Source: a virus (lineage: Duplodnaviria > Caudoviricetes). From it: a DNA stretch of 24,725 nucleotides. Shown piece by piece: positions 901-21,660 of the stretch (within the stretch, counting starts at the first letter, position 1; the number at the start of each line of letters is the position of its first letter). Location of the stretch: positions 1 through 24,725 of the IMG/VR virus record IMGVR_UViG_3300021964_008821; one strand, written 5' to 3'. The notes under the pieces are model-generated. The model did not search any database. It was given only the letters and a program-made list of their open reading frames with translations, and was not told where the DNA came from. A program made the position numbers and the translations under genes.

Positions 901-1110
901 ATGCCAACATATCTATTACCCAAAGCCCGTAACACCCTATCAGGTGCTACACAAAAGACGCAGAATCTAGATGGTTATCACATACCGCACAGCCAGCGTG
1001 CATTAGCACAGGCACAGGCTGATCAGTTAGCGCAGACCTTGACTGAAAGGACTGGAGAGCCGTGGCAGGGGTTTTTGGTGGAATACACGCCTTCGACGAG
1101 GCAGGGTTAA
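901..1110 (+). CDS. Hypothetical phage protein (69 aa)
   Basis: Strong SD and a late-type motif upstream. The stop overlaps the convergent gene's stop (TTAA, 1107-1110). Confidence 0.75.
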   Translation: MPTYLLPKARNTLSGATQKTQNLDGYHIPHSQRALAQAQADQLAQTLTERTGEPWQGFLVEYTPSTRQG

Positions 1111-1829
1111 TCTAAACTGGGAGTCTGTTGCTCTAGGCTTAATTCTTGGTCTTCTAACGCTCTTATCTTTTCAACTATCTCTTCTATGACACCTAGATTC
1201 CTTAGGTTTTTGAACACTTGATTCTCCACTGACCATTCGCCTCCGCGAGCCAGTCCAGCTTTTCTCATGTTCGTTAAACGATCTTTTACTGTCCGTAAAT
1301 CATCTAGATCGCTGTTAGTTAGAGCTAGCTGTATGTCATGGATCATGCTGGCCTGTTTGGCCTGTATAGCAGAGTCATCTACCTCGGGTCGCTGTTTCAC
1401 GGGCTCGACCAACCACTGGCTGTCGTTGATGCTATAAACGCCCGTGCTGTGATGTTCTTCTTGGGTGCCTTGTACATAGACTTCTACAGGTATACCTTTG
1501 ATCTTGATATCGTGCTGTTCGTTCCACAGTGCTTTTTTAGCATTGAACAATTCACGCATAGCATCAGTGACTTCACCTTCGACCATTAGGTGCAGGTCTA
1601 GATCACTGTAAGGTGTCCAGGTGTAATTAGCGTTACTGCCTGTCAGCGTTAGATCGACTATGTCGAGATCTATGCCTATGAATGTTTCAAAACTATCTGC
1701 TATTTTCTTTAGTTTGGCAGTTATCTCGGGTTTTAATCCGTTATCTGACCATATTTTAGGATTGAGGTCACGATTGACCGTGACGCCGTCAAGTTCTTCG
1801 TGTAGGTTGTATAGTTCTCTTAGAAGCAT
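1107..1829 (-). CDS. Pol-beta superfamily nucleotidyltransferase
   Basis: hGS motif (LTGSNANY) followed by SDLDLH, and a third acidic residue in PVEVYVQ. Helical C-terminal region. Confidence 0.8.
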   Translation of the reverse strand: MLLRELYNLHEELDGVTVNRDLNPKIWSDNGLKPEITAKLKKIADSFETFIGIDLDIVDLTLTGSNANYTWTPYSDLDLHLMVEGEVTDAMRELFNAKKALWNEQHDIKIKGIPVEVYVQGTQEEHHSTGVYSINDSQWLVEPVKQRPEVDDSAIQAKQASMIHDIQLALTNSDLDDLRTVKDRLTNMRKAGLARGGEWSVENQVFKNLRNLGVIEEIVEKIRALEDQELSLEQQTPSLD

Positions 1830-1832
1830 ACA

Positions 1833-2072
1833 CTATTTAGCCCACCTTAAATGGTAATCTACAGCGGTAACATCATCGTAGAATTCGGCTACTAGATTAT
1901 ACCTACCATTGGATCTTTCTACCATTAGCTGTCCTCGCTCGTGAGGCAGAGATAATAACCACTCTAGATGATCTTGTCCTAGCTCACGCTGTATCCTAGG
2001 CCAATCTACGTCTATGTTTTCAGATTCGTAGGTTTCTTCCCAAAACGCCAAATGTATCTTTCTAGTCTTCAT
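1833..2072 (-). CDS. Hypothetical protein (79 aa)
   Basis: Exactly fills the gap between the helicase and the nucleotidyltransferase, and its start overlaps the helicase 3' end. Confidence 0.7.
   Translation of the reverse strand: MKTRKIHLAFWEETYESENIDVDWPRIQRELGQDHLEWLLSLPHERGQLMVERSNGRYNLVAEFYDDVTAVDYHLRWAK
1834..1841 (-). promoter_or_regulatory. Late-promoter-like TAAATA motif
   Basis: GCTAAATA on the minus strand, ending 4 nt upstream of the ATG at 1829. Confidence 0.4.
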
Positions 2073-3486
2073 CTCCGCCCATGTTGTTTAATATTTCTCT
2101 TAACTTGGTGCTTTCAACATGTGCCTTGACTCGTCCTACTGGTACGCCTTGTGTAGGTTCTTCTCTGTTTTCTTGATTTACGTTAGATTTTCGTTTGATG
2201 TCGTTTATGATACTAGATGTGCCTCTTGGTGCTGATCCTGAGTGTTCCTGCTCGTCTTCTGGTAGATCTGAAATGCGTAGTGTTTCCATGTTGTATTCTA
2301 GATCAACCTTCATACCAACACCACTGCTTGATCTGGTCTTCATTAACTGTATCTGATATCTACCACGCTCACGCATAGCTCTTGATGTAAAGATACCAAA
2401 TACGTTATCTGCTGTCTGTATCTTGCTCAAACCACCTGAGATATGGCTGTGATCAAATTCTACTTCTTCTACAGCACCCCTGTTTAACTGTGCCGCTGTC
2501 ACGAACACACAATCTAATTCCATCGCTAGGTTACGCAATTCTTCACTTACATACTTGTCTTTGATGAATAGATCCGCTGGAGATATCTTACGGCTGTTAG
2601 GCATTAATAAATCTAAGTAATCTACCAACAACACATCTACACGCTTGCCTACTTTAATCTCATACTCTTTTAGATATGCTCTAACATCATTAGATGTCTT
2701 ACCACTTGGCATATATTTTACCTGTAGGCTACCTGATTTCTTGCCTATCATCTTAACTTTCATCTCGACATCATCTAAGCTCTTAAACACTTCACGTGTT
2801 GGAATGCCTGTGATCATACTATCGATACGCATACTAACTAACGCTTCTGAAAGTTCTAATGTTAGATAAACAACATTGAGTCCCTGTAACGCCCAGTTAA
2901 CACCTAGATTTGCCAAGAATAAGGATTTGCCAGCACCTGATCCTCCCGCAAAAATATTCAACTCGCCTCGATTCATGCCACCAAACAAACGATTGTCAAG
3001 CGCTGGCCATCCCGTCGAAATCTGTCCGTTCTTGTCACGCAATCCCTGTAGCCTAGCTCTAGGATCACTAAAGTAATCTGTACCTAAGTCTTTGGCTAAT
3101 CCTATCTGTACTGCTTCTTTGATCATGGATTCTACCTGTCCATAATCATTCTTTTCTAATAGATCTGCTGAATTGATGATCGCACGTTCTAATGCTTTGT
3201 GTCTAGTAAACTGTTCAAATTCATCCATCAACCAATCTAAGTGTCCTTCTTTGATCTCTTCTGGCTTCTTTAGATCTGTACGGCAATGTGTATTAACCAT
3301 ATCAAAGTCAGGCATCACGCTGTATTGTTTGGTATATTCGTTGATAAACTCCGCCGCATCTTGTAGTTTGCGATCAAACAATGTGTGATCAAAGATACCT
3401 TGGCATCTAACAAATGTTTCAGCATTTGAAAGCATCAGTTCAAGATATAGTTTTTGTACTTCTGGTCCGTAATCGTTGTTTTGCAT
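2062..3486 (-). CDS. Replicative DnaB-like (T4 gp41-type, SF4) DNA helicase
   Basis: Walker A AGGSGAGKS, YLTLELSE, Walker B VDYLDL, TAAQLNR and QLMKTRSS. Adjacent to the primase. Confidence 0.95.
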   Translation of the reverse strand: MQNNDYGPEVQKLYLELMLSNAETFVRCQGIFDHTLFDRKLQDAAEFINEYTKQYSVMPDFDMVNTHCRTDLKKPEEIKEGHLDWLMDEFEQFTRHKALERAIINSADLLEKNDYGQVESMIKEAVQIGLAKDLGTDYFSDPRARLQGLRDKNGQISTGWPALDNRLFGGMNRGELNIFAGGSGAGKSLFLANLGVNWALQGLNVVYLTLELSEALVSMRIDSMITGIPTREVFKSLDDVEMKVKMIGKKSGSLQVKYMPSGKTSNDVRAYLKEYEIKVGKRVDVLLVDYLDLLMPNSRKISPADLFIKDKYVSEELRNLAMELDCVFVTAAQLNRGAVEEVEFDHSHISGGLSKIQTADNVFGIFTSRAMRERGRYQIQLMKTRSSSGVGMKVDLEYNMETLRISDLPEDEQEHSGSAPRGTSSIINDIKRKSNVNQENREEPTQGVPVGRVKAHVESTKLREILNNMGGDED

Positions 3487-3488
3487 AT

Positions 3489-4454
3489 CTAATTATTATA
3501 CTTGATTTTAATGTGTTTTGCAAGTGAACCTTTCCACTCTATTCTAGTGTTTTGGCTATATAAAGCGCATCCTATAGCGCTGGCGCTATCTCCAGGTACT
3601 GGTAAACTCCATATGCCTTTGAACTGATTCTCTAATTTTTTATTAAACTTGCTGTTCATAGCACATCCGCCCATATATACTAAATTATCACTGTATTCTT
3701 TAGCGATATCAAAAACTTTCTGTGCCTGTTTTTCGAATACTTCCTGTACTGCCGCGGCAACATCTGCACGATCAGAATATTGGAAATAACCTTTCCAGTC
3801 TCTAACACCTTTGTGTAAATTCTGTCTTAATTGCCAATCGCTAGTCCAAAAATCTTTAACTAATAATTTGTATCTAGTAGGATTTCCTTGATCACTTAAT
3901 TTTTGTAGTTCGTGTTCTTCACTGATAGGTTTTAGTCCTATTAGATCTGTAAATGCTGAATAAAATAATCCAAGACTAGTTGGATATTTACGGCTCCACA
4001 CTTTCTCAAAAGTCCTACCACGTGCATACCATATAGTGCTTGATTCCCATTCTCCTAGTGCATCTAACACTACGATAACAGCATTCTTAAATGGAGAAGT
4101 TAAGTAACCAGCGGCCGCGTGCGATAAGTGATGCGGAACATATTTAAATTTACGATATTTAATTTTTAATTTTTTCAAATATACTTTAGGAAGTTCGCTG
4201 TAACTAAAAGCCCAACGATATTGTCCTGCATATAATTGTCTGGTTTTCTTTAACCAAGCATTCTCATACCAGACGACTTCGTTAGGATGACAACCACCTG
4301 CTTTTGTAGCATCCTGTATGAGCTGACGACATAAGAACTGATCGCCAACTACATTGGTATATTCTGAAGAACGTTTCCAAAAAATCAGTTCGCCATCTTT
4401 AACAACAGCGATACTAGCATCGTGATTGAGTGCGTTTATTCCCCAAGTAATCAT
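3489..4454 (-). CDS. Carbamoyltransferase (NodU/CmcH family), N-terminal Kae1-like domain only
   Basis: Motifs GINALNHDASIA, HHLSHAAAGYLTSPF, VLDALGEWES, SLGLFYSAFT, AAAVQ, YMGGCAMN and PGDSASAIG. The ORF ends at 321 aa with no C-terminal YrdC-like domain. Confidence 0.9.
   Translation of the reverse strand: MITWGINALNHDASIAVVKDGELIFWKRSSEYTNVVGDQFLCRQLIQDATKAGGCHPNEVVWYENAWLKKTRQLYAGQYRWAFSYSELPKVYLKKLKIKYRKFKYVPHHLSHAAAGYLTSPFKNAVIVVLDALGEWESSTIWYARGRTFEKVWSRKYPTSLGLFYSAFTDLIGLKPISEEHELQKLSDQGNPTRYKLLVKDFWTSDWQLRQNLHKGVRDWKGYFQYSDRADVAAAVQEVFEKQAQKVFDIAKEYSDNLVYMGGCAMNSKFNKKLENQFKGIWSLPVPGDSASAIGCALYSQNTRIEWKGSLAKHIKIKYNN
3495..3523 (-). promoter_or_regulatory. sigma70-type promoter for the helicase
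   Basis: TTGCAA (3523-3518), 17-nt spacer, TATAAT (3500-3495). It ends 8 nt upstream of the ATG at 3486 and lies inside the carbamoyltransferase 3' end. Confidence 0.65.
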
Positions 4455-4564
4455 TTGTATATAAAAGGATCCTGTTTTTTAAGTTGTTTAATTCTTTTCT
4501 TAAATTGTCTATGCTGTTGGAATTTGCGATAGGGTTTAAGAAGCCATTCAATTATTTTCTTCAT
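4451..4564 (-). CDS. Small basic peptide (37 aa) ending DPFIYK; absent from the supplied ORF track
   Basis: Manual translation gives MKKIIEWLLKPYRKFQQHRQFKKRIKQLKKQDPFIYK*. The start overlaps the primase 3' end and the stop overlaps the carbamoyltransferase ATG (ATGA). Confidence 0.8.
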   Translation of the reverse strand: MKKIIEWLLKPYRKFQQHRQFKKRIKQLKKQDPFIYK

Positions 4565-5573
4565 ATTCTAACCTTTCTATTTTTTGTTCCATTTTATGTT
4601 TTGCAACATTAATTTTAATTTGTCCTTGTTGTGCAGTTTTAATGGCATCAACAATTACAAAAAGTTTACCGTATTGTTGTACAGCGTCACTGACATCTTT
4701 GATATGATCATCCCAGTTTGGAAATGCTACACTCCAACCTAACTCTGCGGCTTTAGATACTAAGTTTAATCCAGCACTATCTTGATCTGGAATAACGATA
4801 ACTTCGTGCCCTAAACTATTAATTATCCTAGCCTGTGTGTCATTAACATCGTTAGTGAGTAATGCTACTCCTCCAATGTTTAATGCATCAAACGGACCTT
4901 CTACAACAAAAATATATTTTTGTTCTTCTTTTTGATTATCTACATTAAAAACAAATCCGTTATGATGATCGCTGAGATATTTTGGTTTTCCTTTATCAAC
5001 ACGTCTTGATGTATAACCAACTATCTCGTTTTTATATGTAAATGGAATAGTTACACGTTTATCAAATCCTCCTAACGGTGACCAATAAAAATCACCACTC
5101 AAAGGATCTTGCCCTCGGCTTTCTAGATACATTATGACTTCTGCAATCTTTTCTTCGATATCACTAGGCAGATCAGTATCAATCCAATCTAGCAATCTAA
5201 GACTGCCTTCGGGAAGATCCTTTTTGGTGAATTCTACTTTTGGCTTGAAAGACTCTGGTTTGTATTCGGGGGATTCAGTCTTGAGTGCCTCGAACACAAG
5301 ATCCTTGATCATATCTTCATTTGCACCTAGCCATCGGCACAACGATTTAAATTTCTCAGACAACCCACGTCCTGGTTGCCAACTAGCAGTGAATTTACAG
5401 TTAAAACAGTTAAAGACAATACCGTCAGCAAATCTAATACCACCTCGTTTGCGAGAATCTGGACTATGTCCTCGATGCTGACAACAAGGGGCGTTAAATG
5501 ATGTCCAACCGCTAGGATTGGATTTTGCTCTCGCAGGGAGTAGTTTTCTAAAAGAATCGATTACCAGAGTCAT
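4548..5573 (-). CDS. DNA primase (T4 gp61/DnaG-like, Zn finger plus TOPRIM)
   Basis: N-terminal APCCQH...FNCFNC zinc-binding region. TOPRIM motifs VVEGPFDA, IPDQDSAG and KDVSD. Confidence 0.93.
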   Translation of the reverse strand: MTLVIDSFRKLLPARAKSNPSGWTSFNAPCCQHRGHSPDSRKRGGIRFADGIVFNCFNCKFTASWQPGRGLSEKFKSLCRWLGANEDMIKDLVFEALKTESPEYKPESFKPKVEFTKKDLPEGSLRLLDWIDTDLPSDIEEKIAEVIMYLESRGQDPLSGDFYWSPLGGFDKRVTIPFTYKNEIVGYTSRRVDKGKPKYLSDHHNGFVFNVDNQKEEQKYIFVVEGPFDALNIGGVALLTNDVNDTQARIINSLGHEVIVIPDQDSAGLNLVSKAAELGWSVAFPNWDDHIKDVSDAVQQYGKLFVIVDAIKTAQQGQIKINVAKHKMEQKIERLEYEENN

Positions 5574-6473: not shown

Positions 6474-6845
6474 ATGAAAATTACAGATAATCTAAAAGAA
6501 AACTTCCCATTTATTGCGTGTGTCAATCACGTAGATAAAGAGTACGTTGGTATAATTATTAATCAAGATGCTCAAATAACTAGTATGTACGACTATACTT
6601 CAATCCGTTCAGAGGAAGAAAAAAAGAGATTCTTAGAACTAGGAGAAGCTTGGTGGTGGGAATCCAATAGGCAAATTCCTATTAATATATTTCTTTCTAG
6701 GGAGATTATGTCTTATCGATACGCTATTCGTAATTTTAATACCAAGGATATTAAAGTATTGTTTGGTCCTGTAGTAAGTTTAAACGATATAATCACAAAA
6801 AGAATCAAACGTAAATCAATTACACTCGTTAGAAAAACCAAATAA
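6474..6845 (+). CDS. Hypothetical phage protein (123 aa)
   Basis: Only long ORF in the interval, with a distinctive WWWESNRQIPI segment. No function recognised. Confidence 0.8.
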   Translation: MKITDNLKENFPFIACVNHVDKEYVGIIINQDAQITSMYDYTSIRSEEEKKRFLELGEAWWWESNRQIPINIFLSREIMSYRYAIRNFNTKDIKVLFGPVVSLNDIITKRIKRKSITLVRKTK

Positions 6846-6859
6846 GATAATTACTCTAT

Positions 6860-7672
6860 ATGAGTAAAATACTTTTTATTGGTGACAGTCACACTTCGGG
6901 ATATAGTATTGACCAAGGTCCTATGCCCGATATCTTCATTCCAAAAGTTTGGCATCCTAATAACTACGCAGAAATATACTGTAAAAAACATAATATAGAT
7001 GGTGTAATATATGCGACTCCAGGAGTTGGAAACGATAGGTATCCCGACTGGATTAGATTTTGTCTTGATATGTATCCTGACATAGATAAACTGATATTAC
7101 AAACAACATATTGGAATCGCTGGATGCTGTCTAGCAATCTATATAGCACCTTTGAAGAAGAGATTCCATTAGATAACTTTACGGTTCATCAAGACCAATA
7201 CGACAATATTGATAGATTTATGGACAACATACAACAAGATTGTAATGGTCATTACTTATTTCATGCTAAAACATATCCAGGGCACATGGATCATTTGATA
7301 TTACCTGATGTAGAAAAACCAGAGCCATTCGAAACAGCAAACTATCTACAGATGAAAGTTTTTAATGAATTGGAAACGTTCATATCTAAACAAAATTATA
7401 CAAGAAATTTATGTCTAATAGATAGAATGTGTAAAGAAAAAAATGTTAAAGTTTATATGTGGAGACTCAATAAAGATGTGTTCATACCTACCGAGTTAGA
7501 TGTTTACGGGGATCTAGATATTGTTTTAGAAAGAACACCATGTATTGAGTTTTTAAAGGAAAAAGGTATTGATCATTTAAAACATCATGTAGGTGATGAT
7601 CAAGAACATTATGATTATTCATTCCACAAAGAAATAGCTGAACAGTTTATTCCTCACCTGATTGGACTGTAA
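6860..7672 (+). CDS. SGNH/GDSL-like hydrolase or acyltransferase-fold protein
   Basis: N-terminal ILFIGDSHTSG (GDS block I), PGVGN (block II-like) and C-terminal DDQEHY (DxxH). Confidence 0.6.
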   Translation: MSKILFIGDSHTSGYSIDQGPMPDIFIPKVWHPNNYAEIYCKKHNIDGVIYATPGVGNDRYPDWIRFCLDMYPDIDKLILQTTYWNRWMLSSNLYSTFEEEIPLDNFTVHQDQYDNIDRFMDNIQQDCNGHYLFHAKTYPGHMDHLILPDVEKPEPFETANYLQMKVFNELETFISKQNYTRNLCLIDRMCKEKNVKVYMWRLNKDVFIPTELDVYGDLDIVLERTPCIEFLKEKGIDHLKHHVGDDQEHYDYSFHKEIAEQFIPHLIGL

Positions 7673-8228
7673 AATCACAGATTAGATTCATCTGTACAAC
7701 GATCGCAACAGCATAAGCAGTAGCATGTGACTTCTTAAAGAAGTATTCATCACCTTCTGGTTTCTGCCATACTTCCTGCATTACTGTGTTCCAATCTTTA
7801 CCTACGAGATATCTTTTAGCAGGACGTATTACTGCTAACACTGCCGCTAGTTGTGGAATAGAAGTGGGTTTCATCTTCCTTAGTATTTCACCGTGTCCAT
7901 TAACGTGGAACAACATATCTGTAAAATCATCTTCTTCTAACAGTCCCCACATAGGTTCTTGATTCATTAGTTCTACAAGATGTTGTTCGTCACGTATGCC
8001 TTTGTACAGGCCTACATTTAGAAAATCCAATTTAAAGAAACCCTCTTCGTCCGCTTGATCATATGGAACACTACATAGTCCTTCTACTGCATTAACTGGT
8101 ACATCATGCAGATACACACCTGTGTTGTGTTTAACCATCTTGCCATCTTCAATACGACTAGCAACTACATGATCAAACAGTTCGAGTGCTTTTTCTCTAT
8201 CTAAAAAATCTATATCTATATCAGGCAT
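7647..8228 (-). CDS. Miniature DNA polymerase III alpha (DnaE)-like protein, catalytic palm/fingers fragment
   Basis: Starts MPDIDIDF, then KHNTGVY, FFKLDFL, LAVIRP and YFFKKSHATAYA. These are family-C polymerase motifs in the canonical order within 193 aa. Confidence 0.85.
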   Translation of the reverse strand: MPDIDIDFLDREKALELFDHVVASRIEDGKMVKHNTGVYLHDVPVNAVEGLCSVPYDQADEEGFFKLDFLNVGLYKGIRDEQHLVELMNQEPMWGLLEEDDFTDMLFHVNGHGEILRKMKPTSIPQLAAVLAVIRPAKRYLVGKDWNTVMQEVWQKPEGDEYFFKKSHATAYAVAIVVQMNLICDFTVQSGEE

Positions 8229-8467
8229 TAGTGTTTTATCGTAGTTTCTAATAATAATAAAGGAAGGTTTTTCTTAAGTGTTTCTGCATAATCTTCTGCA
8301 TCTTCTATATCATCAAAATTCATTATCTTAACATAGACTGCAGGTGCTTCGTCTTCTTCTACTGCAAAAATTACTAACTCTAAATCTGCAGGACTAAGAT
8401 ACTCTTCATTTTCTTCTAGTTCTTCTAAATCTTCTATAATCAATGGCGGTTTCTTTTTGTCTTTCAT
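8228..8467 (-). CDS. Small acidic hypothetical protein (79 aa)
   Basis: Very E/D-rich. Translationally coupled on both sides by 1-nt stop/start overlaps. Confidence 0.75.
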   Translation of the reverse strand: MKDKKKPPLIIEDLEELEENEEYLSPADLELVIFAVEEDEAPAVYVKIMNFDDIEDAEDYAETLKKNLPLLLLETTIKH

Positions 8468-9150
8468 TACAGTATCCTCGCTTCGTGTATTACGTCTTTG
8501 ACTAATTCCGTATCAGCAGGAACTGCTTTGAATCTGCTCATCCAAAATTTAGGATCTATCATAGGTCCTACTATTTCTAATTGTTCGTCATTCATTTGCC
8601 TTAACATTTCTTTGCCTGACTTAGTATTTAATAACACCCAAGGACTTATTAACCCTTCTTTAATATCGTGTGTAGCTCGATTAAGATTTACATATTTAAA
8701 ATAATGTTCCCATGGTGCTTCCTGATCGTCCGCCCAATCCATCATAGTTTTAAGTGTTCTCTGTATAGCACCATCTGCTGGTTCTTTCTTAATCAAGTCA
8801 GCGATATATTTTTCATACAATTCATCACGACACCAGTGGTCTAGCTTCACTCCGCTTTTAACAACATATTCTACAAACAGCTCAGGATATATTGGCGCTG
8901 TATTAACCATGAAGCTACCAAACTTCACAAATGCTGTGTAATAAGGACTCTTTACAAAATCATCAAACGTTTTTGTTGTTTTACCTTTTTGTGTGAATTC
9001 ATAAAACTTTTGATAGGTCATTAATCCCATCTGTGTGTGTTTTTCGTTCTTAGCGAGATACCTACGTTTTTGTTCGCAGACATGCACAGCCAAAGTTTTT
9101 TCTTTGACGAACTCTTTTTCGCAATATTCACATTTAAAACTTGATAGCAT
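8467..9150 (-). CDS. Zinc-finger (C2HC/C2H2-like) protein
   Basis: N-terminal FKCEYCEKEFVKEKTLAVHVC; the remainder is helical. Confidence 0.7.
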   Translation of the reverse strand: MLSSFKCEYCEKEFVKEKTLAVHVCEQKRRYLAKNEKHTQMGLMTYQKFYEFTQKGKTTKTFDDFVKSPYYTAFVKFGSFMVNTAPIYPELFVEYVVKSGVKLDHWCRDELYEKYIADLIKKEPADGAIQRTLKTMMDWADDQEAPWEHYFKYVNLNRATHDIKEGLISPWVLLNTKSGKEMLRQMNDEQLEIVGPMIDPKFWMSRFKAVPADTELVKDVIHEARIL

Positions 9151-9610
9151 TGATCTGTTTCTTATCCCAACCTAAACTTTCGCAATAGTTTTTGATTTCT
9201 TTGTCCGAAGTTATCTTAGCCATAGTTTCGATATCTGCATATTTCATATCCGGAAACAAGTTAGCTAAGAATTCTTCTTTTTTGTTTTTTTGTCTTTTTA
9301 AAGGAATCCATTCATGGAAGTGTGTTTTTTTGCTTTCATGTCCGCACATCGCTAGAGTCATCCAAACTAACTTAGGATGCTTTTGTATCTCATTCCAATT
9401 TTTATTATAGAACTCATTAACTGTTAGAACATAATGTTCTTGAAGCTCTCTGTTGTTTGTTTTGACGTTACTGATATACCGATTAAGATTCCAAAAATCT
9501 AATTTGATTTCTTTCTTGCCTTCGTCTGTGGCGGCATCCCACAGTTCTTTGATACCCATATCGACTGCGGGTATCATATCTTTGAATAAATCTACATATT
9601 TGTTAGGCAT
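9134..9610 (-). CDS. Probable clamp-loader small subunit (T4 gp62-like)
   Basis: Size (158 aa), the pattern FWNLNRYIS...VNEFYN...HPKL...FHEWIPLK, and replication-gene context. Confidence 0.55.
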   Translation of the reverse strand: MPNKYVDLFKDMIPAVDMGIKELWDAATDEGKKEIKLDFWNLNRYISNVKTNNRELQEHYVLTVNEFYNKNWNEIQKHPKLVWMTLAMCGHESKKTHFHEWIPLKRQKNKKEEFLANLFPDMKYADIETMAKITSDKEIKNYCESLGWDKKQINAIKF

Positions 9611-9848
9611 TTGTGTCTTTTTTAGTTAAATGATATAACATTTTAACACGTTCTATAGCATTTTGCAAGACCGGATTGTCTTCTGCGGCCTCCAATATTT
9701 CTTTCCAATGTGCTTCTTCTTCTTTAATGCGGGCATTTTTCGATACTCCGACTTTTTCTTTTTTATCAGAATAAAATTTCCTACGATATATTGTTTCACC
9801 CCCGTCGGGAGATTCATAAATGTATGAGTCTGTCATAATGATATCCAA
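9603..9848 (-). CDS. Hypothetical phage protein with YIYESPDGGxTIYRR motif
   Basis: Coupled ORF. The true start may be the second Met (MTDSYIYESPDGG). Confidence 0.75.
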   Translation of the reverse strand: MDIIMTDSYIYESPDGGETIYRRKFYSDKKEKVGVSKNARIKEEEAHWKEILEAAEDNPVLQNAIERVKMLYHLTKKDTNA

Positions 9849-10477
9849 ATATTATCTTTTCCAATTTTTTTAACTAATTTATATTTTAATTTTTTTAAAA
9901 AAATAGAAACATCTTCTCTTATTTTTTTTCTTTCAAGTTCTACTGTTATCACAGGTTTATAACTATTAATAGTATTTTCGGCTCCTTGTAAAATTTCTAA
10001 TTCCGAACCCTGTGTATCAATTTTTATTAAATTTGTTTCTAACCCTAAGCTATCTATTGTAATAATTTTTATTTGTTCTTCTTTTAAACTACTTTCATCT
10101 AATAGATTATATTCAGATGTAGAAAACAATCCACAATTATTAGAAAGTTTTGGAAGTTTTAATTTTTTATCTTCTTGGATTTTGCCTAACCCTAGATTAT
10201 ACAATTTTATGTTTTTATCGTTTCCACAATTTTTTTCTAAACATATAAAGTTTTCAGCAGAGGGTTCAAACGAATATACCTTATTAAATTTTTTTGCAAA
10301 TCTTACAGAATGTAGCCCTACATTAGCTCCAGCATCAATAGCTACTTTGAAATCTTTTACATACTTTAATGATTCTTCGAATACTTCTTGTTGATAAAAA
10401 GTTTCTGGGTAGTTACTAACGTATTTTTTAAAATGAGAATCAAATAACGGAAAAGCCCACCCGTTAACAAATTTCAT
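9833..10477 (-). CDS. FkbM-family SAM methyltransferase
   Basis: AIDAGANVGLHS, YSFEP, LIKIDTQGSELEILQGA and PVITVE. Confidence 0.9.
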   Translation of the reverse strand: MKFVNGWAFPLFDSHFKKYVSNYPETFYQQEVFEESLKYVKDFKVAIDAGANVGLHSVRFAKKFNKVYSFEPSAENFICLEKNCGNDKNIKLYNLGLGKIQEDKKLKLPKLSNNCGLFSTSEYNLLDESSLKEEQIKIITIDSLGLETNLIKIDTQGSELEILQGAENTINSYKPVITVELERKKIREDVSIFLKKLKYKLVKKIGKDNIWISL

Positions 10478-11025
10478 AGTTTTGATCCCATAATGAAGTA
10501 ATTTTTTACAGGAAGTTTTTTGTTAAGCTGTTTTGAAAATTTTTCAAATTCTACATAGTGTTCTTTGTATATATTAAATCCTAAATCTAAAAACTTCTTG
10601 CGCCACCACTCTGGAGTTTCTTGTATAAGGTGAGCATTACGACCGTCTGGTAAAATAAGTTTAGCAGGTGCGCAACTTATTAAATGATAGGTATGATTGC
10701 AATTATCTGCTATTTCTTCTAATGTTTGATCGATTAGATTGGGTTCAATATGTTCTAAAACATCTGTTGATATGATTAGGTCTACTTGAGATAGTAAATT
10801 ATCAAACTTAGGGTTGGCAGGATCAAATCCTAAGATATTTGTTTTGGGATAAACTTCTTTTAATTTTTCTACTAGATTTCCTTTGCCACACCCAAAGTCT
10901 AAAATGCTTGTTGGAGATATTTTTTCTATAAAGACAGGCAGAAAATCCGGAATTTTTGATCTTTTTCCAAATTTAGTTTTAGCGTGTATCTCTGTATAGA
11001 TTTTTTTATAACTATCTGAAATCAT
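10474..11025 (-). CDS. Class I SAM-dependent methyltransferase
   Basis: ILDFGCGKG, GFDP, STDVLEHIEP and NAHLIQETPEWW. Confidence 0.9.
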   Translation of the reverse strand: MISDSYKKIYTEIHAKTKFGKRSKIPDFLPVFIEKISPTSILDFGCGKGNLVEKLKEVYPKTNILGFDPANPKFDNLLSQVDLIISTDVLEHIEPNLIDQTLEEIADNCNHTYHLISCAPAKLILPDGRNAHLIQETPEWWRKKFLDLGFNIYKEHYVEFEKFSKQLNKKLPVKNYFIMGSKL

Positions 11026-11663
11026 AATCCTAAACTTCTCTTTACGGTATGATAGTGTAACATACTTTCTTTGTGATCTTTTTGTTCTCCTTTAAATGTT
11101 ACTAAAGGAGCATGCCCTCTATAGAAGCTCATTATGTCTCCGACTATTGTTTCATGAAATTCATACGTTTCGGAAAGATTTCTTAAAACTTTTTGGTCAA
11201 TACCTGATCTTAGTCTGTCAAACGGAAACTCTAATAATCGTTTTTTTAGATCTTCTCGAAAACTATTATCTCTACCAAAACTAACTAGACCTGCTAACCA
11301 TCTAGGTTTTTTATGATGCCTAAGAACATAAATGTTAGATGAAAGTCGATTCCATTGCTCAACCGTAATTTCTCTCCAACAAATTGTGTCACAATCAATA
11401 GTTACCACCGGTTCTTTATTTTGAAATAACTCCGCAGATTTGATAAATCTAGAGCATTGTAAATATCCAATTCTATGATCTTCTGATGAAAATTCTTGAG
11501 AATCATAATGATACTTAACCCCAGGAAGTTCTTCTATTTTTGTTGCATTAACTATGTTGGCGTGTAATTTAACTGCTGGCGAAAATTTTTGTATACTTTT
11601 TAAACAAGTTTCTCCCCATAGTTCGTAATAAGATTGATCACAAGATATAAGAAGATTAATCAA
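11022..11663 (-). CDS. Putative GT-A fold glycosyltransferase
   Basis: ISCDQSYY start, SRF, DxD motif (TIDCDT), WLAG, DQ and C-terminal TFKG. Distantly similar to the 15401 and 22056 ORFs. Confidence 0.6.
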   Translation of the reverse strand: MINLLISCDQSYYELWGETCLKSIQKFSPAVKLHANIVNATKIEELPGVKYHYDSQEFSSEDHRIGYLQCSRFIKSAELFQNKEPVVTIDCDTICWREITVEQWNRLSSNIYVLRHHKKPRWLAGLVSFGRDNSFREDLKKRLLEFPFDRLRSGIDQKVLRNLSETYEFHETIVGDIMSFYRGHAPLVTFKGEQKDHKESMLHYHTVKRSLGL

Positions 11664-12259
11664 AAGGTTTTCCTAATTTCCTTCCATTCAGCCTCATCTA
11701 TTTTCAAACACCAGTGTCCGATAGACGTGTCGTCGGGTTTTTTGTTAAACAATATTTTGGCAAATCCTGGATTGTATTTCTTTAGACTGCCGCCTTCGTT
11801 TAATTTAAAAAACACTCTATTGCAATAATTGAAACAGTCATCTAAGAAGTATTTCCAATCCCAGTTTTCCTGTCTATCAAACTCTGTTCTAGTTGCTACA
11901 ATCATGTCATATTTTCTTGGTAAATTCATAGGCTGATTTGGTTTTACCCAGAGTTCAAATCTTTTTAAATTAATAAGCTGACAACATTCTATAAACATTT
12001 TTCCTGTAATATCCTCGGTAATATCAGTGCCCTCAACTTCAAGCCCTCTTTGTTCATAGATAAAAGGTAACATTCCTACACCTGTTCCGATATCTAGAAC
12101 ACTTTTAATGTTATTTCCTTCTAACAAAGATAAGTCTGCTATTAATTGTTTTTCGTCCCAGAAGTGGTCCCACCTACGTACATATTTTGATCCGCGGGCT
12201 TTTTTATCGTATCTCTTTGCTATTTCCCACATTTTATCTTTGTATTCTTGTTCTTTCAT
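11660..12259 (-). CDS. Class I SAM-dependent methyltransferase
   Basis: SVLDIGTGVG, VEGTD and KYDMIVA. Confidence 0.8.
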   Translation of the reverse strand: MKEQEYKDKMWEIAKRYDKKARGSKYVRRWDHFWDEKQLIADLSLLEGNNIKSVLDIGTGVGMLPFIYEQRGLEVEGTDITEDITGKMFIECCQLINLKRFELWVKPNQPMNLPRKYDMIVATRTEFDRQENWDWKYFLDDCFNYCNRVFFKLNEGGSLKKYNPGFAKILFNKKPDDTSIGHWCLKIDEAEWKEIRKTF

Positions 12260-12260
12260 T

Positions 12261-13181
12261 TTATCTCCGTTTTAAAAGATGTTTAATAGGATCTCCATTT
12301 AAACATTCGTCTTCTCGCCACTGGCAATATCCAAGATTATTTAACCATTGCTGTCTTTCAAATAACATTGGACTTTCTAAGTCTTCTAAACTTTTGTTTG
12401 ATACATCCCATGCCATTGAGCTTGGACACATACTGAACGTTGGAATTCCTTCACACACGCTTTCTGTTAATGCGTTGGAGTTAAATCCAACAACTGCCCA
12501 TGCATTACTAAAATCAGTATAAAGTCCATCACCTCCTGATAATGAACCTTCTTTAGAAGGGGTGTTACTTATTGTTATTCCTGTTAGATTCAGTGATTCT
12601 ATAATTTTTATTTGTGCTTGTTTTCTGCTTGGATGAGGTCTAATTAATATATCTCTATCTGTATTTTTTTTAATTTCTTTAATTGTATATGATACAAAGT
12701 TTTCATAAGAACCGTGTTTGTCTATTAATTTAGTTAAACTGGTATCTCCGGGTCTCTGTAAAAGAAGAAGGATATATTCTCCTTCTGTCCTCCAAGATTT
12801 TATTTCAATATTTTGATCTGTTTTAATTTGATTCCATCTATCAGGCGGGCTATTTTCATTACAATAGTCTCCCTCGTCTCGAAAGTAACTAGTCCAGCTC
12901 CATCGATGATATGCCATTGGGTTTGGAGGAGTTGGCATATTTCTTCTAAACACCGCTGACTCTACACAGATAAAAGGCTTACCGCTATCTATAACATATT
13001 GATATATTTTACCCAGTTTTTTCTCTCGTTTTCCGCCTTTAATATTTGTTTGTAATAATATGTCTGCAGAATCTATAACAGATTTATTGTCAAATGGTAC
13101 TATAATTACATCATTAGGTAACGGATGATAAGCCCATAACAATTCTTTAATGGCAACTATTTTAATATTTTTATCGAACAT
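12261..13181 (-). CDS. KpsS/KpsC-like (capsule polysaccharide synthesis, GT-B) glycosyltransferase
   Basis: YILLLLQRPGDTS (QxxxD), IRPHP and FNSNALTESVCEGIP. Confidence 0.7.
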   Translation of the reverse strand: MFDKNIKIVAIKELLWAYHPLPNDVIIVPFDNKSVIDSADILLQTNIKGGKREKKLGKIYQYVIDSGKPFICVESAVFRRNMPTPPNPMAYHRWSWTSYFRDEGDYCNENSPPDRWNQIKTDQNIEIKSWRTEGEYILLLLQRPGDTSLTKLIDKHGSYENFVSYTIKEIKKNTDRDILIRPHPSRKQAQIKIIESLNLTGITISNTPSKEGSLSGGDGLYTDFSNAWAVVGFNSNALTESVCEGIPTFSMCPSSMAWDVSNKSLEDLESPMLFERQQWLNNLGYCQWREDECLNGDPIKHLLKRR

Positions 13182-13819
13182 TGTTGATAATTACTACGTC
13201 CTAATATTGTAAATTCTCGATCATACCGTTCAACCCATTCTTTCAAGGCCTTGTATTCGTGACGTTCCCAGAGTTCATATTCTGTTTTGTCTCTGAATGG
13301 ATAAAATTCATCGAATACAATAACTGTTTCTTTAACAATGTGATTGTTTAACAAATCGAAAATAGTTTTTGTGCTAGAATATAAATCACAATCTACATGT
13401 AAAAATTTAATCTGTGCCGGAGCAATTTCTTTAATATGTAGTGGAAGTGTAGAATTAAACCATCCTTTCCATAACCGAACATTAGAATGTACACTAGGTA
13501 ATTGGCCTACTGAAAAATGTCCTTTGGCTACTCTAGGATTTCCTCTAGTAATATCTTTTTTAGTCATTGCCCACGCTTCTGGTAATCCTTCAAAGCTATC
13601 AAAACCATGAACTATGTCTTCTAAAAATTTCTCAGCTATCATATTAATTGAAGCACCACTATACACTCCGAATTCTAATACTTCTCCAGTAATAGATACC
13701 TGTTCCATCGCAAATTTTAAATGATTGTATCTGTGAGTTCCATTTTTAACAGCAGAGGGAGTAACTAATTGACTATCTATAAAATGAGCTATATTATAAT
13801 TAGATTTATTAATAATCAT
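13157..13819 (-). CDS. TylF/MycF-like O-methyltransferase
   Basis: VLEFGVYSG, HGFDSFEGLP, KGWF, LHVDCDLYSST and IVFDEF. Confidence 0.9.
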   Translation of the reverse strand: MIINKSNYNIAHFIDSQLVTPSAVKNGTHRYNHLKFAMEQVSITGEVLEFGVYSGASINMIAEKFLEDIVHGFDSFEGLPEAWAMTKKDITRGNPRVAKGHFSVGQLPSVHSNVRLWKGWFNSTLPLHIKEIAPAQIKFLHVDCDLYSSTKTIFDLLNNHIVKETVIVFDEFYPFRDKTEYELWERHEYKALKEWVERYDREFTILGRSNYQQCSIKILK

Positions 13820-13829
13820 AACAGTAACA

Positions 13830-14402
13830 TTAATTTACATTTGAATTCATAAATAATAACCCTCGGTTTCTCACAAACGCTTTTTTTCCTTTTTTAACCT
13901 TAAGGTTTAATGTTGATGCTACTCGAACTTGTTTAGTATAGTCCTCATTATAGATCAGCCCATAATTTTTAAAAGTATCGATCCAATATTTTTCTTCTTG
14001 TAGATTGACATGATGATGGCCTTCCCAACCAGGAGGAGCATACGTCATTAATATAGTTTTGCAAGATTGGAAGGCTTTTATGAAATTAGGAATATACTGT
14101 TCATAGACATGTTCAACAAATTCAACACTCCATCCTATGTCGTATGTTCCTGACAAAGGTGCTGGTCCTTTAGTAAAATCGTGTATTAGAAATCTATCTT
14201 CGTTGTATCGATTAACAGTATAATCTCCATCTATGCCTTTTGAATCCAGACCCATTTCTTCTGCTAATTGTACCATTCCTCCGGGACCACAGCCTATATC
14301 TAAATAGCTTTTTGCGTTAAAGGTATTTTTTAAAAATGTTAAAGCACCATGATCTAAATGTGTTTTATCAGCATGCCCGCCTAAGTGTTTTTCTAATGCC
14401 AT
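13830..14402 (-). CDS. Class I SAM-dependent methyltransferase
   Basis: YLDIGCGPG, GIDGD, WSVEFVEHV and GHHHVNLQ..YW. Confidence 0.88.
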   Translation of the reverse strand: MALEKHLGGHADKTHLDHGALTFLKNTFNAKSYLDIGCGPGGMVQLAEEMGLDSKGIDGDYTVNRYNEDRFLIHDFTKGPAPLSGTYDIGWSVEFVEHVYEQYIPNFIKAFQSCKTILMTYAPPGWEGHHHVNLQEEKYWIDTFKNYGLIYNEDYTKQVRVASTLNLKVKKGKKAFVRNRGLLFMNSNVN

Positions 14403-14435
14403 TATTTTCTTCTTACTATATTGTAATATTGTTTA

Positions 14436-15404
14436 TTAAGATAATCTTTTAATATCTGCATCGACCATCATTTTTATTAATTCTTCAAATGTTACTTTAG
14501 GAGTCCATCCTAACAACGCTGTTGCTTTTGAGCTGTCTCCGCAGAGACTATGTAATTCTGCAGGGCGTTTGAATCTTGGATCTGATTTTACGTATTTTTG
14601 ATAATCAGTAATACCGACATGATTAAATGCTACGTCTAATAATTCTCCTATACTATGTTGTTCGCCAGTTGATATAACATAATCGCCTGGTTCTTTTTGT
14701 TGTACCATCATCCACATCGCTTCAACGTAATCGCCAGCAAATCCCCAATCTCTTTTAGAATCTAAGTTACCTAAAGTTATCGTATCTGAAAGCCCTAATT
14801 TAATTCTAGCAACAGCGTCGGTTATTTTTCTTGTAACAAAATCTATTCCTCTTAATGGAGATTCATGATTAAACAAAATACCATTTGAAGCATGAAGACT
14901 GTAGCTTTCACGAAAATTAATAGTGATCCAATAAGCATATAGTTTTGATACACCATACGGACTTCTTGGCTTAAACGGAGTATTTTCATGCTGTTTAGTA
15001 CCGTCACTGTTTCCATACATTTCACTGGTACTTGCTTGATAATATCGTGTACTAGGATTATTCAATCTAATAGAGTTTAGTATGTTCAACGGACCCATAG
15101 AATTTGTTTCTGTTGTTAATTTATTAAGTTCCCAACTAGCGCCAACAAAACTCTGTGCCGCTAAATTATAAAATTCTTCTGGTTTAATAGTTTTAATGAT
15201 ATGATTCATAGAATTTTCATCAGTGATATCACCAGTAATTAATTCTATATCATTTTCAATTCCTAAAAATTTAATATTATCTAAATTTGGATTGGAATAT
15301 CTTTTTATAAGACCGTAGACTTCATATCCTTTCTCTAACAAAAATTTTGATAGATACGGACCGTCTTGACCGGTTAATCCGGTAACAAACGCTATTTTTT
15401 TCAT
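14436..15404 (-). CDS. gmd: GDP-mannose 4,6-dehydratase
   Basis: VTGLTGQDG, NLAAQSFV, YQASTSEMYG, PRSPYGVSK (YxxxK), LFNHESPLRG, FVTRKI and KRDWGFAGDYVEAMW. Confidence 0.97.
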   Translation of the reverse strand: MKKIAFVTGLTGQDGPYLSKFLLEKGYEVYGLIKRYSNPNLDNIKFLGIENDIELITGDITDENSMNHIIKTIKPEEFYNLAAQSFVGASWELNKLTTETNSMGPLNILNSIRLNNPSTRYYQASTSEMYGNSDGTKQHENTPFKPRSPYGVSKLYAYWITINFRESYSLHASNGILFNHESPLRGIDFVTRKITDAVARIKLGLSDTITLGNLDSKRDWGFAGDYVEAMWMMVQQKEPGDYVISTGEQHSIGELLDVAFNHVGITDYQKYVKSDPRFKRPAELHSLCGDSSKATALLGWTPKVTFEELIKMMVDADIKRLS

Positions 15405-16105
15405 TTTAAACTTCCTTGTGACATTTTTGTTTTTTTATCGCCCTTGAAATGAATCATATGTCCGACAAATGTTTTATTAAAATTATTTTTATTCAATGCA
15501 GGAGTTAAATTAAAAGATTTAATTTTCTTATTATTTTCAAAGTTAATCCTTGTGGCATCGTAAACATGACAATCTGTAAATGCGTTTAGTGTATAAATTT
15601 TATCACTATCATAATACCCTTTATATTCTTCGAAAAACTCTTTTCTATAAGGATATCCTAAATTAAATGCTAAAAAACCAGTTTCAGTATAATTTCTTGC
15701 TCTGCCTAAATAGCTTGTAAAGTATCCTTTAGGAAGAAATTGTTTTAAGTAATCCGAAGTGATTTCTTTTTTAATTAACGTATCAGCATCTAACCATATT
15801 AAAATGTCTGTATTAATGTTTTCTGAAGCATGCCAAATAGCATAACTTTTATGACTAAATCTTACAGCATCAAACAAAAAGTTTTTATGTAATTTATTTT
15901 TGTTTCTATTTTTAAATTTAACTAAGTCTGGAATTGAATTTTCTAAAGGTATGGTGTTAATTTTTGGACTATTAATTTTTACATTATCGGTATACAAATT
16001 TATAACAATGCTTGAATCAAAATACTTTTCTATACCATCAACAAACACGTGTGCATATTCGTTATATCCGGTATCACTAAATGTTGAAACTAGTCCGATT
16101 TTCAT
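15401..16105 (-). CDS. GT-A fold glycosyltransferase
   Basis: VSTF..GY..Y, DAVRFSHK, WLDADT (DxD), YLGR..YTETGF and HFKG. Paralogue of 22056..22895. Confidence 0.75.
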   Translation of the reverse strand: MKIGLVSTFSDTGYNEYAHVFVDGIEKYFDSSIVINLYTDNVKINSPKINTIPLENSIPDLVKFKNRNKNKLHKNFLFDAVRFSHKSYAIWHASENINTDILIWLDADTLIKKEITSDYLKQFLPKGYFTSYLGRARNYTETGFLAFNLGYPYRKEFFEEYKGYYDSDKIYTLNAFTDCHVYDATRINFENNKKIKSFNLTPALNKNNFNKTFVGHMIHFKGDKKTKMSQGSLK

Positions 16106-16452
16106 TTTTTACTAATATATCCTACGCTTGTTCTTTCAATGTCGTCGTGATCGAAATGTGCCCAATATAATTCAAAAGCTAACGTATTTTCTAATGCTTC
16201 GAACTGATGATATTCTCCCGGTCTTACGACAGTGTATTGGCCTTCTGTGACTATTGTTTCATCTACTAAGTCATAGTCGTTCTTCCAAACTTTTACAGAT
16301 AGTTTACCAGATACAACATAAAATCCGTTGAATTTAAATTTGTGTTTATGTTTAGAACAAGTTCCGCCTTTTTTAATATCTATACGATGGAATTCTAAAC
16401 TAGAATTTGCTTCTATGAGTTCAGTTTGACCCCAGACTTTTCCTTCTATCAT
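16102..16452 (-). CDS. Cupin-fold protein (mannose-6-phosphate isomerase/sugar isomerase-like)
   Basis: GKVWG, CSKHKHKFKFNGFYVVSG and VRPGEYHQFEA. Confidence 0.8.
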   Translation of the reverse strand: MIEGKVWGQTELIEANSSLEFHRIDIKKGGTCSKHKHKFKFNGFYVVSGKLSVKVWKNDYDLVDETIVTEGQYTVVRPGEYHQFEALENTLAFELYWAHFDHDDIERTSVGYISKK

Positions 16453-16478
16453 AACTACCCTTAATTAAGTGCTCTGTT

Positions 16479-16486
16479 TATTTACC
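16479..16486 (-). promoter_or_regulatory. Late-promoter-like TAAATA motif heading the cupin-GT-gmd run
   Basis: GGTAAATA in one of the few true intergenic gaps, 26 nt upstream of the ATG at 16452. Confidence 0.45.
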
Positions 16487-16993
16487 TTAGAGTTTTTTGA
16501 ACCACACATTGTTAGGACCGACATCATATTTCTTTACTAACTCGGATACTGCTTGATTTACACCTGGGTAGTCAATATCATGTCCTGTTATCAATCCTCC
16601 TTTTTTCAGTTTAGGAGTATATAATTGTATATCTTTTCTTACAAATTCATACTTATGATTACCATCTATAAAAATGATATCAATGGAGTTATCTGGAATA
16701 AAATCAGCCAATGTATGACTCATTCCTTTTAATACTATTAATCTATCTCCATATTTTTCTTGTATTTCAGAAGAATAAAATTGACTAATATTAGTATCTA
16801 TGCCATATACTGTTAAATTAGGAAACAGATCAAGAAGATAAAACGAAGTACCTCCGTTTCTCACACCAATTTCTATCATAGTGTTACAGTTATAAGTTTC
16901 TATTAACCACTGAAGAACATGTCTTCTACTACTTTTCTTTCTATTCCATTCTATAGTTCGTGGAACAATTAATCTATCATTGCTATTCGCCAT
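16487..16993 (-). CDS. SAM methyltransferase (Methyltransf_24-like)
   Basis: IEIGVRNGGTS, YGID, IFIDGNHKY and GGLITGHD..YPGV. Confidence 0.9.
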   Translation of the reverse strand: MANSNDRLIVPRTIEWNRKKSSRRHVLQWLIETYNCNTMIEIGVRNGGTSFYLLDLFPNLTVYGIDTNISQFYSSEIQEKYGDRLIVLKGMSHTLADFIPDNSIDIIFIDGNHKYEFVRKDIQLYTPKLKKGGLITGHDIDYPGVNQAVSELVKKYDVGPNNVWFKKL

Positions 16994-17499
16994 TAGAGCA
17001 ATTTGTCCAGTTGTATAATTTCGCTCTGTCTAGAAACTTCTTTAACAAAATATGCACACGGAGGATTTAAATCATCATTTAACGGAACAGTTAATAATTG
17101 TCCGTTTTTCATTTTAGGAAAATACCATTTAACATCTTGATAGATGTTAAGTATTTCAATAGGCATATATTCTGTTCGATATCCTGCAATTGGATTGAAA
17201 ACCATTGCGTCAAACCCACGCTCATTGATTGATGTCAGCGGAAGTATTTCTGGATCTAATCCGGATTCGCTATCTGCTACAACCATACACCAATCCAAAG
17301 GCATCTGTACTTCGTATCCTCCTATGTTTAACAGTATTGCAGGACTGTTAAATGATTCTAAAAATATAAGAGGCATAAAAAAGAAATCCGGCTCTTGAGG
17401 ATTGCTGTTGTCTAAAACATTAAATCTCGTACCCTCATCTACCTCCTCTGGCAATTCATTTAGATCAAATGCTCTATTTTCTAACGTTAATATTTTCAT
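16993..17499 (-). CDS. Hypothetical protein, possibly a non-catalytic Hint-like fold
   Basis: Coupled 168-aa ORF. Strand spacing is reminiscent of Hint domains (see findings). Confidence 0.7.
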   Translation of the reverse strand: MKILTLENRAFDLNELPEEVDEGTRFNVLDNSNPQEPDFFFMPLIFLESFNSPAILLNIGGYEVQMPLDWCMVVADSESGLDPEILPLTSINERGFDAMVFNPIAGYRTEYMPIEILNIYQDVKWYFPKMKNGQLLTVPLNDDLNPPCAYFVKEVSRQSEIIQLDKLL

Positions 17500-18131
17500 T
17501 TAGTTTTCCTCATAATTACATTTCTGTGATCATCGTCCCAATCACTTATCTGATATCCAAGTGTTTGACAGAAAGCAATAGCATCTCTATCAGTTCCTTC
17601 TTGTTCTATTATTAATAAAGGCGAGTATTTTTCTATGGTATTAACACACCCTTTTAAAACTTTAAGTTCATATCCATCTACATCAATTTTAATATAATCT
17701 ATATCTGGAAGATTAAATTCGTCTAAGGTATAAAGTTGTTCTTCGTACCAATTCTCTTTAGGAATTTTTCCAGCGGTCATGCTTCCGCCGCCACTTACTT
17801 TTTCTATCTTATGTTCGTCAGCTAGTCCGCATTTAAAATGTGTTATCTTTTTTAAATCTACGTTTTTATGAAAAAGTTTTCTTTTTCTATAATCAAAACA
17901 AAATACATGATTAAAATCTTTATGAAGATATCTTGTGTACTCTCCATCACGACATCCGATATCTACAGCATTTCGATAATTTTTTATATAAGGAATACTT
18001 TTAATCCAAGTTAATTTACAATGATGATTTGGAAATTCCTTAGTTCCATCTGGACTGCAAAAAAAGTCTCTATCAAACCATTCCCATTCGAATGGATTTT
18101 CTTTAAAGGTAGTAGGTTCTAAAGGATACAT
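17496..18131 (-). CDS. FkbM-like SAM methyltransferase
   Basis: AVDIGCRDG, TLDEF, YIKIDVDGYELKVLKG and PLLIIE. Confidence 0.85.
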   Translation of the reverse strand: MYPLEPTTFKENPFEWEWFDRDFFCSPDGTKEFPNHHCKLTWIKSIPYIKNYRNAVDIGCRDGEYTRYLHKDFNHVFCFDYRKRKLFHKNVDLKKITHFKCGLADEHKIEKVSGGGSMTAGKIPKENWYEEQLYTLDEFNLPDIDYIKIDVDGYELKVLKGCVNTIEKYSPLLIIEQEGTDRDAIAFCQTLGYQISDWDDDHRNVIMRKTK

Positions 18132-20768: not shown

Positions 20769-20797
20769 ATTATAACAAGTTTAAAATGCTATGTCAA
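20769..20797 (-). promoter_or_regulatory. Perfect-consensus sigma70 promoter
   Basis: TTGACA (20797-20792), 17-nt spacer, TATAAT (20774-20769). It ends 6 nt upstream of the ATG at 20762. Confidence 0.85.
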
Positions 20798-21624: not shown

Positions 21625-21631
21625 AGGTTTC

Positions 21632-21653
21632 TATAAATAACTGAGTATTTAAT
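21632..21653. promoter_or_regulatory. Pair of oppositely oriented T4-late-like promoters
   Basis: Exact TATAAATA (+, 21632-21639) and ATTAAATA (-, 21653-21646). Each lies 21 nt from its ATG (21661 and 21624). Confidence 0.65.
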
Positions 21654-21660
21654 TAGAATT

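Follow-up and report, generated by a model that had tools for sequence, protein, structure and literature searches.

The locus and its gene neighbourhood

The window, by which we mean the whole stretch of 24,725 bases analysed here, is an entire assembly that is about 7% complete, and its content (a DnaB-like helicase, a DnaG-type primase, a UvsW-like helicase, a virion protein and a sugar- and methyltransferase cassette) indicates a piece of a large phage. The region 7647..8228 is coding on the minus strand, where it holds a 193-aa ORF, and its plus frame is full of stops. The original prediction had named no strand for this region, which we assigned by translation, and the motifs were recovered at the positions then claimed: the start MPDIDIDF, H34-N-T-G, K66-L-D68-F-L, I134-R-P and F164-K-K-S-H-A-T-A-Y172. 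The ATG shares one base with the stop codon of the upstream 79-aa gene (TAATG, 8230-8226); in relatives, the start codon runs into a preceding stop at 66 of 80 loci. The features discussed below, with the 193-aa gene referred to as the C gene, are as follows.

7647..8228, minus strand: C gene, 193 aa, predicted C-terminal subunit of a split minimal DNA polymerase III alpha, with metal-binding palm strands, a probable thumb beta-hairpin and shortened fingers
8214..8222, minus strand: D3-I4-D5, corresponding to E. coli D401/D403 and matched in the alignment by the MPD motifs at Taq 461 and Mtb 413
8118..8129, minus strand: H34-N-T-G37, on a beta-hairpin, likely corresponding to thumb strand Tb2 with His511
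8025..8033, minus strand: K66-L-D68, corresponding to E. coli K553/D555 and aligned to the DnaE KMDFL
7815..7826, minus strand: R135-P136-A-K138, template-contact motif corresponding to E. coli R639-P640 and aligned to E. coli 606-641
7713..7745, minus strand: Y162-F-F164-K-K-S-H168-A-T-A-Y172, corresponding to E. coli Y754/F756/H760/Y764 and aligned to E. coli 743-767
8228..8467, minus strand: acidic 79-aa upstream gene, variable, in 54 of 85 related loci and 0 of 5 cultured phages
8467..9150, minus strand: 227-aa C2H2 zinc-finger-like protein (PHROG 11058), in 83 of 85 loci
9134..9610, minus strand: 158-aa protein (PHROG 11758), in 82 of 85 loci
6474..6845, plus strand: convergent 123-aa gene (PHROG 11637), in 84 of 85 loci
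4548..5573, minus strand: DnaG-type primase, located downstream within this conserved block, within 10 kb of the C gene in 76 of 85 loci
2062..3486, minus strand: DnaB/gp41-like replicative helicase, same block, within 10 kb in 68 of 85 loci

The acidic 79-aa protein had been put forward as a candidate partner, and the distribution listed above speaks against a general role of this kind. The 227-, 158- and 123-aa neighbours are unannotated and are conserved like the C gene itself. The 158-aa protein matched the gene behind RFC in the phage Slicko01 at E 0.01 only, which is a weak lead towards a clamp-loader small subunit. Between the C gene and the convergent 123-aa gene lies a 270-aa ORF (6860-7672, plus strand) that overlaps the end of the C gene by 26 bases; it had no Pfam or PHROG match and was missing from all 85 related loci, and its start, ILFIGDSH, presumably recalls SGNH/GDSL hydrolases.

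The helicase is followed downstream by a 240-aa Pol-beta-like nucleotidyltransferase gene (PF01909, PHROG 36119; 1107-1829, minus strand), found in 46 of 85 loci, and between primase and helicase there is a carbamoyltransferase gene encoding the N-terminal domain only (PF02543, 321 aa; 3489-4454, minus strand). A cassette at 9833-16993, 17496-18131 and 20794-24682, which encodes methyltransferases (FkbM, TylF and others), GDP-mannose 4,6-dehydratase, a cupin and probable glycosyltransferase-like ORFs, interrupts the replication block; the family scan of the window covered ORFs up to 20762, and five ORFs lie beyond. UvsW is about 11 kb from the C gene here, compared with a median of about 5 kb in relatives. 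Three marine metatranscriptome runs from one study contained 11-17% of the words of the window, and one run gave two 151-base contigs at depth 2 inside the C gene, with similar scattered cover elsewhere in the window.

A conserved protein family under purifying selection

Protein searches recovered 6565 homologues among 6612 candidates of 106-338 aa, with lengths of 163-205 aa among the 120 matches listed. PHROG 11778 matched residues 3-187 (E 6e-66), and 96 GenBank phage records matched the C protein over at least 80% of its length. The carriers include Phosso, Atu_ph07, Paride/PA5oct, GAP32, RaK2, 121Q, XacN1 and the 141-kb Slicko01. Single-sequence searches with the C protein matched no family in Pfam and no chain in the PDB (0 matches), and the ESM Atlas returned only unnamed viral clusters, one of which had PF17657 on 12% of its members.

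The best 80 of 544 IMG/VR loci, which were partly selected by the MPDIDIDF motif, all encode proteins of 188-195 aa with an ATG at MPDIDIDF. The claim that the protein begins exactly at MPD therefore held for these 80 relatives and not for the cultured phages, where 0-16 extra residues precede the motif and PD is replaced by TD, MD or FD. Residues D3, D5, D7, H34, G37, K66, D68, R135, P136, H168 and Y172 were invariant in all 68 distinct coding sequences. The same residues, together with K138, were invariant in all 15 sequences of a more diverse set (the window protein and 14 cultured homologues, 33-53% identity). Y162, the equivalent of Y754, was invariant in close relatives and kept in 5 of the 15 diverse sequences as aligned.

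The median dN/dS of the C gene was 0.13 and the maximum 0.26 by the Nei-Gojobori method, for the 138 of 2278 pairs with 0.02 < dS < 1.5 among the 68 distinct sequences, the pairs being non-independent. The C gene is thus under purifying selection, and neither the variable breakpoints nor the neutral dN/dS of a pseudogene was observed, which bears out the earlier view of a streamlined protein. The short length of the ORF and the absence of most DnaE domains might suggest an assembly artefact or the decaying remnant of a captured dnaE. This is refuted by the constant length and start position across all 80 loci, by the low dN/dS in all 138 pairs and by the residues invariant in the 15 diverse sequences, and the presence in 96 phage records and the confident predicted fold also stand against it.

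A shifted frame nested inside the C gene was open for 64-67 codons from about codon 92 in 54 of the 68 distinct genes, compared with an expectation of 0.3 under synonymous resampling, a figure that is not a probability since the sequences are related. The corresponding frame in the window, from a GTG at 7950 downward on the minus strand, carries 7 stops in 70 codons, and the frame is broken in all 12 cultured phages examined. The window copy is therefore a natural control without the overprinted gene.

Two separately encoded probable halves of a family-C polymerase core

Profile searches with the C family against PDB sequences matched DnaE chains only, weakly in both cases: four matches in one search (E 0.0014-0.054) and nine in a second. 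The profile alignments to DnaE followed four collinear blocks (MPD, KxDFL through RP, FxKSH). The AlphaFold model of the C protein had a pLDDT of 90.4; the alignments behind the folding models were sequence sets of 60-80% identity. Family-C polymerases took the top 15 rows of a Foldseek search with the C model, none of them at E 0.001. Re-alignment, a second look at the candidates from Foldseek and not an open search, gave Z 9.5 (rmsd 3.5 Å, 186 aligned) for PolC 3f2c and Z 8.9 (rmsd 3.6 Å, 185 aligned) for residues 400-784 of E. coli 2hnh. Family-C polymerases ranged from Z 6.2 to 9.5 in this comparison, and the first unrelated row had Z 2.9. A superposition on the DnaE palm had been named as a test of the original prediction, and the C model is indeed superimposable on the palm and fingers of DnaE/PolC, sharing the fold of E. 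coli 2hnh, Taq 2hpi/3e0d, Mtb 5lew and the G. kaustophilus PolC 3f2c.

The family-C core is marked by a Pol-beta-like palm that carries three catalytic aspartates and leads into finger helices, and the model and the alignments together show this arrangement. E. coli D401, D403, D555, K553, R639-P640 and H760 map to D3, D5, D68, K66, R135-P136 and H168, all of them invariant, and the segment Y162-Y172 is a predicted nucleotide-pocket helix-loop-helix with the steric-gate histidine. A full-length replicative DnaE combines PHP, thumb, HhH and OB regions in one polypeptide of at least about 1100 aa, and the protein, at 193 aa, is not of this type. D5 and D68 are 63 residues apart here compared with 152 in E. 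coli. The thumb was described earlier as missing, and this is accurate for its helical body. The modelled strands 21-27 and 30-39, however, form a beta-hairpin that bears the invariant H34 and likely corresponds to Tb1/Tb2; a KHxxG motif is taken by us to match the thumb hairpin site with H34. According to an E. coli Pol III cryo-EM preprint from 2026, Tb1 (429-438) and Tb2 (503-513, with His511) sit in the DNA minor groove (10.64898/2026.06.29.735100). The model suggests that the DNA-binding beta-strand pair of the thumb has probably been retained and that the helices between the strands have been deleted.

The original prediction placed a GRGS-bearing half elsewhere in the genome, and a gene with GxGRGS was found in 14 of 14 cultured genomes. 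A PF07733 search revealed a small separate gene, hereafter the N gene, in 3 of 5 long related contigs and in 3 of 3 cultured genomes, and a search with the N-subunit alignment detected a single copy in every one of 11 additional cultured genomes. GxGRGS was present in 80 of 80 IMG/VR loci, each protein ending 28 residues past the motif, and in 19 of 19 diverse N subunits of 155-183 aa, which end 28-33 residues after it. PHROG 11127 matched the N subunit of a relative (E 9e-43). The dN/dS of the N gene had a median of 0.27 (168 of 1225 pairs), and the gene lies close to a Cpn10 gene in the three loci scanned.

The N subunit aligns to E. coli 323-392, Taq 412-454 and Mtb 364-406. It ends at E. 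coli residue 392-393, and the C subunit begins at about 399 (Taq 461, Mtb 413), so that the two halves abut in the alignments, with about six residues dropped between them. An open search of 48,161 chains superimposed the N model on E. coli 277-393 with Z 10.3 (rmsd 2.4 Å, 95 aligned), and the best DnaE superposition of residues 67-166 was on 5lew (Z 12.5, rmsd 2.3 Å, 93 aligned). The top 13 rows listed by Foldseek for the N model were family-C polymerases, none at E 0.001. In E. coli numbering, N spans about 277-393 and C about 399-784, the latter with two large internal deletions; the two genes account for neighbouring stretches of the DnaE palm. In the N subunit encoded at L127:3001-3498, residues 1-65 have a confident predicted fold (pLDDT 84-92) without a clear structural match, and they would form a phage-specific segment where DnaE carries its PHP domain.

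The phage pair has in common with DnaE/PolC the catalytic triad, K553, RP and H760, with GRGS contributed by the partner. It differs in size, with two chains of 193 and about 165 aa compared with about 1100-1400 aa, and in having no PHP, helical thumb body, HhH, OB or tau-binding regions. A further family-C hallmark, R390 and R396 beside the dNTP, is lost: the R390 position is Glu or Asp in 50 of 50 close N subunits and Glu in 19 of 19 diverse ones, and the N chain stops before the position of R396. The Lys or Arg at the end of 17 of 19 N subunits, or the invariant K138 of the C subunit, might compensate for this loss.

The two genes are 11 to about 180 kb apart and are therefore not co-transcribed. 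N, C and PolB occur together in 14 of 14 cultured genomes and in 2 of 2 complete IMG/VR genomes, in agreement with the expectation that a family-B polymerase would be found alongside. Across IMG/VR contigs PolB was present in 9 of 12, the three misses being 39-56% complete, and the context is T4-like, with DnaB/gp41 helicase, DnaG primase and UvsW. Neither the N gene nor a family-B polymerase is present in the 24.7-kb window. Among 11 long IMG/VR contigs picked for their C gene, the N gene was found in only 3, all 11 being 30-79% complete; the fullest contig lacking it (G002) stops 19 kb upstream of its PolB, which falls short of the 22-25 kb at which N sits in five relatives. Conversely, the C gene was present in 3 of 5 contigs chosen by the N gene, including both complete ones. 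No match to PHP or HhH_6 was found in five complete genomes (0 of 5 each; the controls matched in 14 of 14 and 13 of 14), and the finger-domain matches in complete genomes mapped to the C gene itself, apart from one weak unrelated match. No fused N and C form was found among 448 longer candidates, which is weak evidence. One 350-aa candidate on a 2-kb contig (P0125) is most likely a chimera, as only its last 122 residues match C and its N part is unrelated, with no similarity to the N subunit.

Earlier descriptions and proposed function

The reading as a split polymerase is supported by these results, and the novelty that had been implied for it is not. Iyer et al. 2021 (PMC7824862) described, for group 2.2 jumbo phages, a minimal Pol III alpha split into an NTP-binding N part and a metal- and template-binding C part that are encoded by distant genes; it accompanies a family-B polymerase and lacks the other Pol III domains, and a role in the synthesis of one strand was allowed. 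The window protein is likewise a small stand-alone protein with Mg-binding aspartates and a template-binding part. It comes from an uncultured clade whose proteins start at MPD, and its own partner gene lies outside the contig. Atu_ph07, a phage named in group 2.2, has a 49.5% identical C homologue together with the partner. PHROGs 11778 (C) and 11127 (N), both full-length matches, are labelled DNA polymerase, and the labels are silent on the two being halves of one enzyme. In earlier work on phage genomes, a Pol III alpha truncated to 172 aa had been noted for CBB (PMC5259590) and a conserved Pol III alpha gene for Rak2-like phages (PMC6102473), and a term search of Yutin et al. 2024 (PMC11348598) returned no passage on a split Pol III alpha. 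The literature searched, which covered few subscription papers, held no activity, expression or essentiality data and no bench test of the split polymerase. Our additions are small: the thumb strand pair probably survives, R390/R396 are lost, a 141-kb phage is among the carriers, and the nested frame is broken in the window.

The intein-split DnaE of cyanobacteria is reported to be likewise encoded by two distant genes, but its halves are full-size and intein-spliced, whereas the phage halves are miniature. They contain no intein-sized segment, the N subunit ending 28-33 residues after GRGS.

We propose, with a probability of about two in three, that the C gene encodes the Asp-bearing half of a two-gene mini family-C polymerase of the GAP32/Rak2/Atu_ph07 type, which putatively pairs with the GxGRGS protein and would act as a template-directed, deoxy-selective and distributive enzyme without proofreading that assists the family-B replicase. 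The cryo-EM preprint lists the residues around the dNTP and DNA in E. coli Pol III and reports that K553A and R362A abolish activity and that R390A lowers efficiency 27-fold (10.64898/2026.06.29.735100); H760 was identified as the steric gate of this enzyme by Vaisman et al. 2021 (PMC8485763). By analogy, the N subunit would supply R362/G363/S364 for dNTP binding. The C subunit would supply the metal ligands D3, D5 and D68, the primer-phosphate lysine K66, the template contacts R135-P136 and the ribonucleotide gate H168, with K138 as a possible stand-in for basic residues of the fingers. A priming aid, repair and non-templated addition had been put forward as possible roles; retention of the template-contact and sugar-gate residues favours templated DNA synthesis. 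The same preprint describes palm residues 271-393 as fixed and the part with D401/D403 as moving on DNA binding (10.64898/2026.06.29.735100), and the split between N and C would therefore fall at a natural hinge.

Because PHP, the helical thumb body, HhH, the clamp-binding region and equivalents of R390/R396 are missing, the enzyme would be expected to incorporate a few deoxynucleotides, with no proofreading, before letting go of the DNA. The position of the C gene beside the primase (76 of 85 loci) and the helicase (68 of 85) points to short-patch synthesis at the fork, before PolB takes over, as the likeliest job. Candidate tasks are the elongation of primers from the primase, gap filling and lesion bypass; gene neighbourhood, the evidence that bears on this point, does not tell them apart. 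Primer-extending helper polymerases that work without proofreading beside a main replicase are known from Bacillus subtilis (DnaE) and from eukaryotes (Pol alpha); they offer a model for how the phage pair may work, but they are large single chains. A bolder extension, tentative and on balance doubtful, is that the heterodimer of about 360 residues is the smallest working family-C polymerase and a dedicated primer extender, which would take RNA primers of the DnaG-type primase, add the first DNA through a rewired dNTP pocket lacking R390/R396 and hand over to the family-B replicase, like eukaryotic Pol alpha, with assembly at the palm hinge (393/399) as the on-switch.

The deletion of most of the duplex-gripping parts, visible in the shortened D5-D68 spacing, the loss of the R390/R396 equivalents, the base-stacking tyrosine that varies in distant members and the 65 or so unmatched N-terminal residues of the N subunit are what one might expect of a template-independent Pol-beta-fold nucleotidyltransferase, either a terminal transferase or a maker of short oligonucleotides or signals. 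We consider this unlikely, as the template-contact pair R135-P136, the primer contact K66 and H34 are invariant and the C gene sits within the core replication block.

Still less probable is a role for the pair as a mimic with little or no catalytic activity, which would bind DNA junctions or parts of the host replisome, for instance to block or recruit host machinery. The two triphosphate-side arginines are lost and every genome tested already encodes a complete PolB, as such a mimic would allow, but the three metal ligands, K66 and GRGS are invariant across 33-53% identity, and the DnaE regions that bind clamp, epsilon and tau are the very ones that are missing. Equally slim is the chance that one of the neighbours (the zinc-finger, 158-aa or 123-aa protein) serves as a third subunit, standing in for the thumb or clamp contact and making the enzyme processive, so that it replicates one strand. 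These neighbours are as conserved as the C gene (83, 82 and 84 of 85 loci), and the one-strand role allowed by Iyer et al. would fit; however, none of them had a polymerase-domain match in Pfam or PHROGs, and no proofreading or clamp-binding part of DnaE was detectable in the five complete genomes.

As the split polymerase has been in print since 2021, the discovery value of the present copy is low. If active, the proposed two-gene polymerase would define the minimum for a family-C polymerase and would imply a replisome that mixes family-B and family-C enzymes. The system is directly testable because both halves are present in cultured phages (Paride, PA5oct, GAP32, RaK2, 121Q and Atu_ph07) and in Slicko01, and suitable mutants follow from the residue map. 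Slicko01 (OQ508956.1, L183), a 141-kb Alishewanella phage well below jumbo size, carries both halves 11 kb apart and is a compact model system. Its family-B polymerase is apparently encoded in two reading frames.
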